28,437 nucleotides of DNA from a virus (Duplodnaviria; Heunggongvirae; Uroviricota; Caudoviricetes). Each line of letters begins with the position of its first letter. Position 1 is the first letter of the stretch. Below, one piece after another: positions 12,914 through 13,696 of the stretch. The position numbers and the translations under genes were made by a program. The stretch is from positions 1 through 28,437 of IMG/VR virus record IMGVR_UViG_3300026224_000011; one strand, given 5' to 3'. Below the pieces are notes generated by a model. It had not been told where the DNA came from and searched no databases. It saw only the letters and a program-made list of their open reading frames with translations.

Positions 12914-13201
12914 TTAAAGGGAAGCGAGTTTTAATGGTGGCTTATAACATGCCCGCGCCAGCAGGTTAGCTCTTTCCACGGCATTACGCATTTCCCGTTC
13001 TGCGTCAATCATTCTGTTTACGGCTGACAGCACTTCATCATGATTCGTTACTGATTCCGGGCTTTGGGCCTGTTTCGCCAGGTAACTGGATAAATTGCAC
13101 ATTTCAGCATGTCGGCGACGGGCTGCATCCCGGGCCTTGTCTGAAAATGCGGTATATTCACCGAGTACTGCATAGTCGATATCGGTGTCAGAACGCATCA
13201 T
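12914..13201 (-). CDS. hypothetical protein at the position of Mu C
   Basis: 95-aa ORF; ATG at 13201 is 6 nt after AAGGAGA; no HTH recognised. Confidence 0.45.
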   Translation of the reverse strand: MMRSDTDIDYAVLGEYTAFSDKARDAARRRHAEMCNLSSYLAKQAQSPESVTNHDEVLSAVNRMIDAEREMRNAVERANLLARACYKPPLKLASL

Positions 13202-13228
13202 TTCGTGTCTCCTTTTTTCTGAGGCCCA

Positions 13229-13696
13229 TTAATCAAAAAGCCCCACCTGGGTGGGGCTTTTCAGCGAAGTCTGTTTTTGTCGTCGGTGTATCAGCTGCCA
13301 TGCGTACCGATCTGAAATCCCGTAGCGGGGACAGAGCAGTGCCAGCGCCTGCCGGTGTGAGAATCCGTCCCTGATATGCCGCTGTAAATCAGCCATAAAA
13401 CGGGTGTTACGCAGGGCACGTAACGCATGATCGCAACGGGGAATGTAAAACGGAGCACCGCCAAGAAAGCGGATCAGTTTGTTGATTTCGTCTTCGGTCA
13501 GCACATCATGTAACAGGGCATGGACGCCGCCGGTGCGTTCAGCGTGTGCGCCGGTTTTACCGCTTAACGTCACGCCACCAAAAGAACGAATCAACCGGGT
13601 CAGGGCGGGGAAGCCAATCACGCTAATCAGTTGCTGCACGGAGTCGGGCAGCAGTGCCTGCGCATCGCGAAGATCTGTTTCACTGAAGGTCTGCAT
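13229..13696 (-). CDS. Mor/C-family transcriptional activator
   Basis: 155 aa; C-terminal ...RYGISDRYAWQLIHRRQKQ resembles the Mu Mor HTH region; ATG at 13696 with GGAGA RBS. Confidence 0.65.
   Translation of the reverse strand: MQTFSETDLRDAQALLPDSVQQLISVIGFPALTRLIRSFGGVTLSGKTGAHAERTGGVHALLHDVLTEDEINKLIRFLGGAPFYIPRCDHALRALRNTRFMADLQRHIRDGFSHRQALALLCPRYGISDRYAWQLIHRRQKQTSLKSPTQVGLFD
13235..13261. terminator. intrinsic terminator-like hairpin overlapping the last codons of the Mor/C gene
   Basis: aaaaa gccccac ctgg gtggggc tttt; A-run and T-run on both sides, so potentially bidirectional. Confidence 0.5.

Follow-up and report, generated by a model that had tools for sequence, protein, structure and literature searches.

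The mor gene and the hairpin in its last codons

The stretch of DNA described here, hereafter the window, comprises the 28,437 nucleotides of the virus record IMGVR_UViG_3300026224_000011 and carries a Mu-like transposable prophage of the E. coli type, whose genes are transcribed from the minus strand. This report concerns its mor gene, which encodes a late-gene activator of the Mor/C family, a terminator-like hairpin located within the last codons of that gene, and the small open reading frame (ORF) of 95 amino acids (aa), ORF95, that follows it. The features that matter first are the following.

13229-13696, minus strand: mor, the single Mor/C-family late-gene activator gene, 155 aa (Pfam PF08765, phrog_836)
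13236-13261, minus strand: intrinsic-terminator hairpin with a stem of 11-12 bp and a 4-nt loop, within the mor coding sequence
13235-13249, minus strand: codons Q150-V-G-L-F154, C-terminal beta-clamp-binding motif (CBM), assigned from conservation and the published consensus
13208-13214, minus strand: Shine-Dalgarno sequence AAGGAGA of ORF95, 6 nt before the ATG
12914-13201, minus strand: ORF95, a two-helix-hairpin protein of 95 aa (phrog_7152), exchangeable cassette of the GemA/Mor module

Proteins of the Mor/C family are about 100-150 aa long; their N-terminal half is acidic, their C-terminal half is basic, and a helix-turn-helix (HTH) lies near the C-terminus (PMC2582627). The 155-aa protein of the window aligns with both Mu Mor and Mu C across the YIP(R/C) and HTH region, and its size and architecture are those of the family. 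It matches the Pfam family Mor (PF08765) with 29.1 bits, for a cut-off of 24.9, over residues 50-143, and phrog_836 ('late transcriptional activator') with 9e-42. Direct matches are weak, at 7.8e-4 with Mu C and 0.043 with Mu Mor. A first-pass annotation, made from the sequence alone, had recognised a single Mor/C-type gene and had named in advance a second such gene as the observation that would speak against it. That gene was looked for in two ways. A hidden Markov model (HMM) of the Mor family matches exactly one ORF in the window. It likewise matches a single ORF in a 97%-identical E. coli relative, whose whole prophage, with its tail region, was covered. When the window Mor, Mu Mor and Mu C served as queries against the six-frame translation, the window yielded no second Mor/C gene. 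The claim of a single gene thus stands.

The same annotation had placed a strong hairpin (13235-13261) over the last ten codons and the stop codon of mor, which is essentially right: the stem is formed by the codons K146-S-P-T-Q-V-G-L-F154, and D155 and the stop codon fall in the U-rich tail. The transcribed strand reads AAAAGCCCCAC-CCAG-GTGGGGCTTTT followed by TGATTAA, and its RNA form AAAAGCCCCAC-CCAG-GTGGGGCUUUU followed by UGAUUAA. The two arms of 12 nt each (13236-13247 and 13250-13261) are 100% complementary, and the folding energy is -20.6 kcal/mol (z = -3.7), a stability reached by none of 200 shuffled sequences. Perfect stems of at least 11 bp occur four times in the window, against an expectation of 0.04. 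With a GC-rich stem holding 7 G-C pairs, a 4-nt loop and then UUUUUGAUU, the structure has the anatomy of an intrinsic terminator; an A-tract precedes the stem and a U5 run follows it, and the U-rich tail extends to 13229 across the F-D-stop codons. Its position is less usual, since a terminator is expected after the last stop codon of its unit, whereas this stem sits in mor codons 146-154. A consensus terminator scan did not pick up the hairpin, because A/U pairs prolong its stem into the U-tract.

What the first-pass annotation missed is the identity of the peptide encoded by the hairpin: judged by its residues and their conservation, it is the family's conserved C-terminal CBM (QxGLF). Mor ends in Q150-V-G-L153-F154-D155 followed by the stop codon, so that Q is the first residue and L-F are the last two of the pentapeptide motif, and each of Q150, L153 and F154 is at least 90% conserved among 20 family members (alignment A4). 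The tails of the collected Mor relatives include RQSGLFDDE, KQGSLF, HQGSLFDN, AQGALF and AQGSLF, next to TQVGLFD in the window, HQPDLF in Mu C and YQPSLL in Mu Mor. According to a recent study of Mu (Ho and Harshey 2026, PMC12867686), MuC binds DnaN via QHDLF and QPDLF, and an L-to-A change in either motif abolishes late transcription; the same study derives a C-terminal consensus QPDLF from a survey of 100 Mor/C family members, gives QL[SD]LF as the general motif and attributes the toxicity of MuC and Mor to clamp sequestration. The window tail Q-V-G-L-F-D agrees with the motifs described there at Q, L and F. By contrast, the second, N-terminal motif Qx[DE][LM]F, which that study ascribes to both MuC and Mor, is found neither in the window Mor (MQTFSETDL) nor in its subfamily (MKITVN...). 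Since the subfamily lacks it, the C-terminal tail is probably its only clamp contact.

The hairpin is not simply dictated by this peptide. When the 884,736 synonymous codings of LKSPTQVGLFD were enumerated, a perfect stem of at least 11 bp arose in only 0.35% of them, so that the peptide alone does not force the stem. The mor gene of a Salmonella prophage shares 65% protein identity and 67.7% DNA identity with that of the window, and its last 30 nt are 97% identical, more than any other part of the gene; third codon positions agree in 13 of the last 16 codons, compared with about 45% elsewhere. Among closer relatives, changes in the hairpin are confined to the loop or to the outermost A-U pair. 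In an Aeromonas relative, a strong terminator lies 2 nt after the mor stop codon. The hairpin at 13236-13261 is accordingly best described as a predicted intrinsic terminator that would close the mor transcription unit.

ORF95 and the surroundings of mor

In descending coordinates, the early part of the prophage runs from a repressor gene and a ner-like gene to the genes for transposases A and B, further early genes and GemA. These are followed by a gene for a 112-aa lipoprotein-like protein, the Mor-family gene, ORF95, two holin genes and the M15 endolysin gene, and beyond the endolysin by a DUF1804 gene, a DNA methyltransferase gene, the large terminase gene, and the portal and head genes. 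The mor-ORF95 region is present in 58 complete E. coli genomes at 90-99% identity, in which PGAP calls the same two ORFs. Three features lie upstream of mor.

14131-14625, minus strand: gene for GemA
13757-13788, minus strand: intrinsic terminator after the 112-aa lipoprotein-like gene (-15.8 kcal/mol, then U6)
13726-13753, minus strand: sigma-70-like promoter TGTACA-16-TATAAT directly 5' of mor, with 10 of 12 consensus matches

A strong terminator precedes mor in every close relative, constant in position and variable in sequence (AACCUUCGC...GCGGAGGUUUUUU in the window versus AGCCCCUGC...GCAGGGGCUUUUUU elsewhere). The promoter-like sequence TGTACA-16-TATAAT is kept in L005-L011, L021 and L025, regardless of the gene located upstream. 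Together with the hairpin at its 3' end, mor thus has the appearance of an insulated unit, composed of a terminator, a sigma-70-like promoter, the gene itself and a second terminator. The -35 hexamer of the promoter-like site overlaps a palindrome, CTGTACAG; as it occurs a single time, no operator family could be defined from it. The 112-aa gene (13796-14134, minus strand) encodes a signal peptide and a weak Sel1-repeat match (phrog_5882) and is moron-like in its position between gemA and mor; it is found in the window, L001 and L011, and another insert or nothing takes its place in L005-L010.

ORF95 starts 27 nt after the mor stop codon in the window and 13 nt after it in the Salmonella homologue. 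Its strong ribosome-binding site AAGGAGA, pointed out in the first pass, is confirmed in the sequence and is retained in relatives up to the cassette boundary, and the same ORF95 is annotated by PGAP in relatives. The protein corresponds to phrog_7152, a family without assigned function, over its full length (residues 1-95 of 95, 1.8e-56), and an exhaustive profile search at E<=1e-3 retrieved 38 clusters, defined at 50% identity, with lengths that almost all fall within 88-100 aa. Conserved residues are G14, E15, A23, A26, R30, L41, A78, N79, A82 and C85 (alignment A2). With this alignment, AlphaFold predicts an antiparallel two-helix hairpin, with helices at 10-45 and 54-82 and a pLDDT of 92.9, in which the conserved residues lie at the open end and the tip is variable. 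The C-terminal tail retains a hydrophobic pattern, [LIV]-[ST]-x-x-x-[LF], which is not the canonical QL[SD]LF. As suspected from the sequence, no DNA-binding motif is apparent: neither Pfam nor NCBIfam gave a match to a DNA-binding or other domain, in agreement with the two-helix model. Comparison with Mor and C by phmmer detected no similarity (E above 1), no transmembrane segment was found, and no homologue was present in the Mu early region or among 50,697 isolated phage records.

The genomic context of the family was examined in 17 loci from a family search of viral contigs (alignment subset A3) and in 3 prophages reached via Mor proteins. Wherever a recovered locus reaches that far, the ORF95 family lies inside the GemA/Mor module, and its position within the module varies: it is found after mor, before gemA or, in one locus, between gemA and the first Mor gene. 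In L014, L015 and L017-L019 it precedes gemA, and Mor directly abuts the endolysin or DUF1804 gene; in L012 and L016, mor is followed by ORF95 with no terminator in between. An Aeromonas prophage with the same Mor subfamily lacks ORF95 beside mor. In a Serratia prophage (L028, ~3070-3292), the ORF95 homologue reads MTNYAALGEYNA, then a stop codon, and continues in another frame, which reflects either a pseudogene or a sequencing error.

A comparison with L006 delimits the cassette. DNA identity is 97-100% through mor and the hairpin, drops to about 50-70% exactly over ORF95 (13216 to ~12900) and is again about 100% at the late promoter described below, so that the mosaic boundaries can be placed at ~13217 and 12863-12900. 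At the protein level, identity is 98% for Mor, 43% for ORF95 and 89% for the holin. Alleles of ORF95 that are 43% identical beside Mor proteins that are 98% identical argue against a partner co-evolving with Mor.

A promoter of its own between the hairpin and the ATG was also considered for ORF95 and rejected: neither a promoter scan nor inspection of the sequence found one, and no -10-like hexamer occurs within 13202-13235. As there is no room for such a promoter and the gene is conserved and coding, transcription of ORF95 would have to pass the hairpin. The gene is located 5' of the predicted late lysis promoter and is therefore not considered a late gene. These features are those of an exchangeable early-region accessory gene of the GemA/Mor module, which is how ORF95 is tentatively classified here. 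As to its function, a guess offered with low confidence is that it acts on a host or competitor target and not on Mor.

Some observations concern other parts of the gene order. The DNA methyltransferase gene (9955-10695, minus strand) is flanked by the DUF1804 (small-terminase-like) gene and the large terminase gene; in a Salmonella relative it is placed differently, between the holin and lysozyme genes. The endolysin module is exchanged between near-identical prophages, with an M15 peptidase in the window (11665-12093) and a GH108 enzyme in L001 (12819-13364). An intergenic gap of the early region (14799-14826) contains a further perfect 12-bp hairpin, GCAGACCAAAAC-ATAT-GTTTTGGTCTGC.

Candidate late promoters

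Downstream of ORF95, and at one further place in the window, lie elements that resemble late promoters.

12867-12895, minus strand: dyad or hairpin with the late-promoter upstream element GGGTGCTGAACACCCCC (core 12878-12887), between ORF95 and the holin gene
12840-12845, minus strand: predicted -10 hexamer TACCCT of the late lysis promoter, 36-41 nt 3' of the G in CTGAAC, with a predicted start at ~12833
12765-12810, minus strand: long hairpin in the predicted leader of the holin/lysis operon (-27.9 kcal/mol, z = -6.9)
12313-12726, minus strand: holin gene (Phage_holin_8), the first late gene, with its start set by PGAP as in L001, followed by the second holin gene and the M15 endolysin gene
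4816-4863, minus strand: second late-promoter-like site, 5' of the protease/scaffold gene and at the position of Mu PI, with core GGTGCTGAAC at 4854-4863 and CATCAT at 4816-4821

The core GGTGCTGAAC has exactly two perfect copies in the window, one at the lysis-operon site and one at 4854-4863, and L001 has the same two. About 29 bp are common to both copies (GGGTGCTGAACACCCyCmrCAGTACCC). A third copy is found between baseplate genes in the tail region of this relative (L027, ~6030-6050), roughly at the position of Mu PP, and the element is also conserved in distant relatives. Wherever the motif CTGAAC(N)CCC begins a late operon, a yAnnnT hexamer follows exactly 36-41 nt after its G. This fixed spacing was seen at both window sites and in L001, L003, L005-L013, L015, L021, L025, L027 and L030, with the hexamers TACCCT, CATCAT, CAGACT, TATCTT, CAGTAT, CACACT, TATTCT, TATACT and TACACT. 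The arrangement GTGCTGAAC(N)CCC, about 30 nt, then yAnnnT is thus a candidate consensus for the late promoters of this Mor subfamily, and the dyad at 12867-12895 is proposed as the putative Mor-binding site of the lysis-operon promoter. The placing of the dyad speaks to some extent against this proposal: Mor/C-family activators bind dyads centred near -43.5 in promoters with a -10 but no -35, whereas the centre here lies at about -48, and -43.5 is obtained only with another dyad (TGCTG-N8-CAGCA).

Two other readings of this region were rejected. The 12867-12895 structure is not regarded as primarily a second terminator, because the transcribed strand has no U-tract after it and because the conserved element that recurs at the PI and PP positions makes up its loop and right arm. 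A TTGACA inside hairpin B was considered as a sigma-70 -35 element and discarded on inspection, no -10 being present at a usable spacing.

The presence of one mor gene, together with an element shared by the equivalents of Plys, PI and PP, suggests that the single Mor activates the late operons directly, without a second activator of the C type. This fits a two-tier cascade (early, Mor, late) instead of one with three tiers, and the first-pass statement that the cascade differs from that of Mu is borne out in this form. Two relatives of the same Mor subfamily, L013 (4300-6006) and L030 (1488-2959), carry two tandem Mor-family genes each, and in L013 a CTGAAC-type promoter element follows each of them, which resembles the Mor-then-C cascade of Mu; both types of cascade thus occur within the subfamily.

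The leader hairpin at 12765-12810 shows compensatory changes in relatives (CCCTG/CAGGG to CCCGG/CCGGG), and L011 has a different inner stem; it could serve mRNA stability, attenuation or control of translation. At the PI-like promoter (window 4806-4821, minus strand), the predicted start falls on or beside the ATG of the protease/scaffold gene (4808-4806, PGAP). As no Shine-Dalgarno sequence precedes this ATG, the protease/scaffold mRNA may be leaderless. A perfect A/T-rich palindrome, CGTTTTTAAAA-ggg-TTTTAAAAACG (4901-4925), is found about 50 nt 5' of the PI-like promoter element.

Interpretation and comparison with known systems

These elements can be assembled into one proposal. The window hairpin would be the counterpart of the terminator that follows mor in Mu, moved about 30 nt upstream in the E. 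coli/Salmonella lineage, so that stem and U-tract are written in the codons of the clamp-binding tail SPTQVGLFD. Because the hairpin lies inside the reading frame, ribosomes translating mor would partly suppress it and turn it into a leaky, translation-gated attenuator. Such behaviour has a precedent in synthetic constructs, in which intrinsic terminators located in the late coding region or a few bp past the stop codon are repressed by translating ribosomes (Li et al. 2016, PMC4824070), and it is on this precedent that the gating is postulated here. RNA polymerases with ribosomes close behind would read on into ORF95, which would be expressed via this read-through or by re-initiation after mor, and uncoupled or stray transcription would stop ahead of the lysis genes, which start about 500 nt further. 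Mor would then act at promoters with GTGCTGAAC(N)CCC about 48 nt 5' of the start and a yAnnnT -10 hexamer, no C-type activator being involved. Taken as a whole, that is, including the terminator, its gating, the insulated mor unit, direct late activation and the accessory nature of ORF95, this account is regarded as reasonably probable, though well short of certain; what the sequences show directly is the features themselves, where they lie and how far they are conserved.

Several observations weigh against parts of it and lend themselves to the view that the hairpin plays no part in termination and arose passively from the clamp-motif codons and a recombination junction. Distant relatives with an SPxxQGxLF tail show a 5-bp CCCCC/GGGGG pairing at the same place, and a motif spelled with Pro (CCN), Gly (GGN) and Leu-Phe codons is by itself prone to some pairing and to a run of U; part of the hairpin would thus be a by-product of the peptide. 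The recombination boundary at ~13217, about 20 nt 3' of the hairpin and adjoining the conserved island, may add to the nucleotide conservation, and ribosomes would in any case suppress a terminator at such a position. No terminator follows mor in L012, L016, L028 and L030, and it is therefore not essential to the family. A mere by-product nevertheless appears unlikely, given the rarity of the stem among synonymous codings, the retention of third codon positions in the last codons of the Salmonella gene far above background, the full terminator anatomy of A-tract, stem and U5, the terminators that abut mor in Mu and Aeromonas, and the terminator that the window lineage also places before mor. 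The inverted repeat might instead act at the DNA level, as an activator site or promoter element for ORF95. Mu offers a model for this, since its middle promoter Pm holds a terminator and has a Mor-binding dyad at -51 to -36, and the window has the same layout of mor stop codon, hairpin and next gene. Such a role is nonetheless given little credence: the gap between hairpin and ATG is only 33 nt, partly taken up by the Shine-Dalgarno sequence, and shrinks in Salmonella to a gap of 13 nt between the mor stop codon and the ATG; the interval has no -10-like hexamer; and the hairpin shares nothing with the CTGAAC element of the late promoters.

Other alternatives concern ORF95. The first-pass annotation had proposed it as a co-activator, an anti-termination factor or a lysis-timing factor, in other words as a second-tier factor that replaces Mu C and is required for late expression. 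Its location between mor and the lysis genes, its strong ribosome-binding site, the constant placement of its family within 1-2 genes of GemA or Mor and a hairpin-rich region that offers targets for an anti-terminator are all compatible with this. The proposal is nevertheless not supported. Against it stand the absence of an HTH and of similarity to Mor/C, the conserved late promoter that lies downstream of the gene, and the loci where the gene comes before gemA, with Mor directly beside the endolysin or DUF1804 gene. The 43%-identical alleles occur with 98%-identical Mor proteins and an identical late promoter, and the gene is frameshifted (Serratia) or missing (Aeromonas) in prophages with the same Mor subfamily. 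A substitute for C would have to fit Mor or the late promoter, which would hinder exchange, and its free swapping thus led to the rejection of this role. For a lysis-timing factor, a lasting association with the holins would be expected, and this role was rejected because the cassette is swapped; the protein lacks a transmembrane segment, and its adjacency to the holins is not constant. A required second-tier role is accordingly judged quite unlikely. ORF95 could alternatively modulate Mor, in its clamp-dependent activity or its toxicity, for example through contacts of the conserved surface at the helix base of ORF95, or of its tail, with Mor or the beta clamp. It is linked to Mor and GemA in the recovered loci, the toxicity that Ho and Harshey (2026, PMC12867686) ascribe to clamp sequestration by MuC and Mor makes a moderator plausible, G14, E15, R30, N79, A82 and C85 cluster at the open end of the helical hairpin, and the tail keeps its [LIV]-[ST]-x-x-x-[LF] pattern. 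Yet variation among its alleles does not follow that of Mor, the gene is missing from Mu, the phage in which clamp dependence was demonstrated, and the tail of the protein departs from QL[SD]LF; a modulator of this kind is held to be scarcely probable. The classification of ORF95 as an accessory gene has its own weak point, in that the homology and structure prediction proposed as a check in the first pass gave a family and a confident fold but neither kinship with Mor/C nor a functional lead, sequence and fold searches returning only generic helical hairpins.

A more ambitious combination joins these ideas: the terminator would sense translation, only transcripts on which mor is translated would reach ORF95, and ORF95 would modulate clamp-dependent late transcription by binding DnaN or Mor. 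It is a long shot. If true, ORF95 might, for instance, limit the toxicity of Mor or time the late switch, and it would be a new component of the replication-coupled transcription mechanism described for Mu.

As for the preferred account of a translation-gated terminator and direct late activation by one Mor, its interest lies in the clamp-binding tail. The clamp requirement reported for the late activators of Mu gives the C-terminal QxxLF tail functional weight. The same 30 nt would encode this tail and a terminator, a compact natural case of overlapping protein and RNA-structure codes, in which the strength of the terminator should depend on translation. For many enterobacterial Mu-like prophages, the data provide evidence of a two-tier cascade with an insulated mor unit and, as by-products, a candidate late-promoter consensus and a family of small proteins, conserved yet freely exchanged, that is linked to the GemA/Mor module. 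The current understanding of Mu-like regulation is not overturned.

Compared with Mu (AF083977), both likenesses and differences can be noted. In Mu, mor ends at 9170 and is followed by an annotated terminator (9179-9200) lying inside the middle promoter Pm (9163-9233), and a second terminator overlaps the stop codon of C, just before Plys. The window is alike in that a GC-rich hairpin with a U-tract comes directly after a Mor-family gene and precedes small genes without known function, and in both phages an activator gene (C in Mu), a hairpin and a lysis-operon promoter succeed one another. The terminator is not a departure from Mu in kind. The hairpin of Mu, with U7, begins 6 nt past the mor stop codon, whereas that of the window lies within the last 10 mor codons. 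The Mu terminator overlaps the Mor-dependent Pm, whereas no promoter fits between the window hairpin and ORF95; the centre of the window dyad (13248.5) is only 47 nt from the ORF95 ATG, too close for a composite of the Pm type, which would need a -10 hexamer and a start about 40-45 nt past the dyad centre and still before the next ribosome-binding site. In the early operon of Mu, mor is translationally coupled to gemA, whereas the window mor has its own upstream terminator and promoter. ORF95 stands between the activator gene and the lysis promoter, unlike the arrangement of C and Plys. It does follow mor, but it does not strictly occupy the place of C as first thought: in Mu, mor is followed by gp18, gp19 and gp20 before C, and ORF95 is thus in a 'middle operon' position.

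The C-dependent late promoters of Mu (Plys, PI and PP) combine a -10 hexamer with a dyad that overlaps the -35 region, and lack a -35 hexamer; the shared element of the window lineage is found at the three corresponding positions. At Mu Pm and the Mu late promoters, the activator is bound over about -57 to -28, which the predicted layout in the window fits. The upstream element GTGCTGAAC(N)CCC differs from that of the Mu late promoters, and where Mu needs both Mor and C, one activator would do both jobs in the window. For phrog_7152, of which ORF95 is a full-length match, the present analysis adds a predicted fold, conserved residues, linkage to GemA and Mor, and cassette behaviour. The geometry of the hairpin, a terminator in the last part of a coding region, is shared with the constructs of Li et al. 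(2016, PMC4824070); these were synthetic and used tR2, whereas the arrangement in the window is natural, conserved and overlaps a functional peptide motif. That the codons of the clamp motif double as a terminator is a feature of the window, one that the parts of Ho and Harshey (2026, PMC12867686) consulted here do not report. Given the terminators beside mor in Mu and Aeromonas, an activator gene with an abutting terminator is a layout already known, and what would be new here is the shift of the terminator into the coding sequence.

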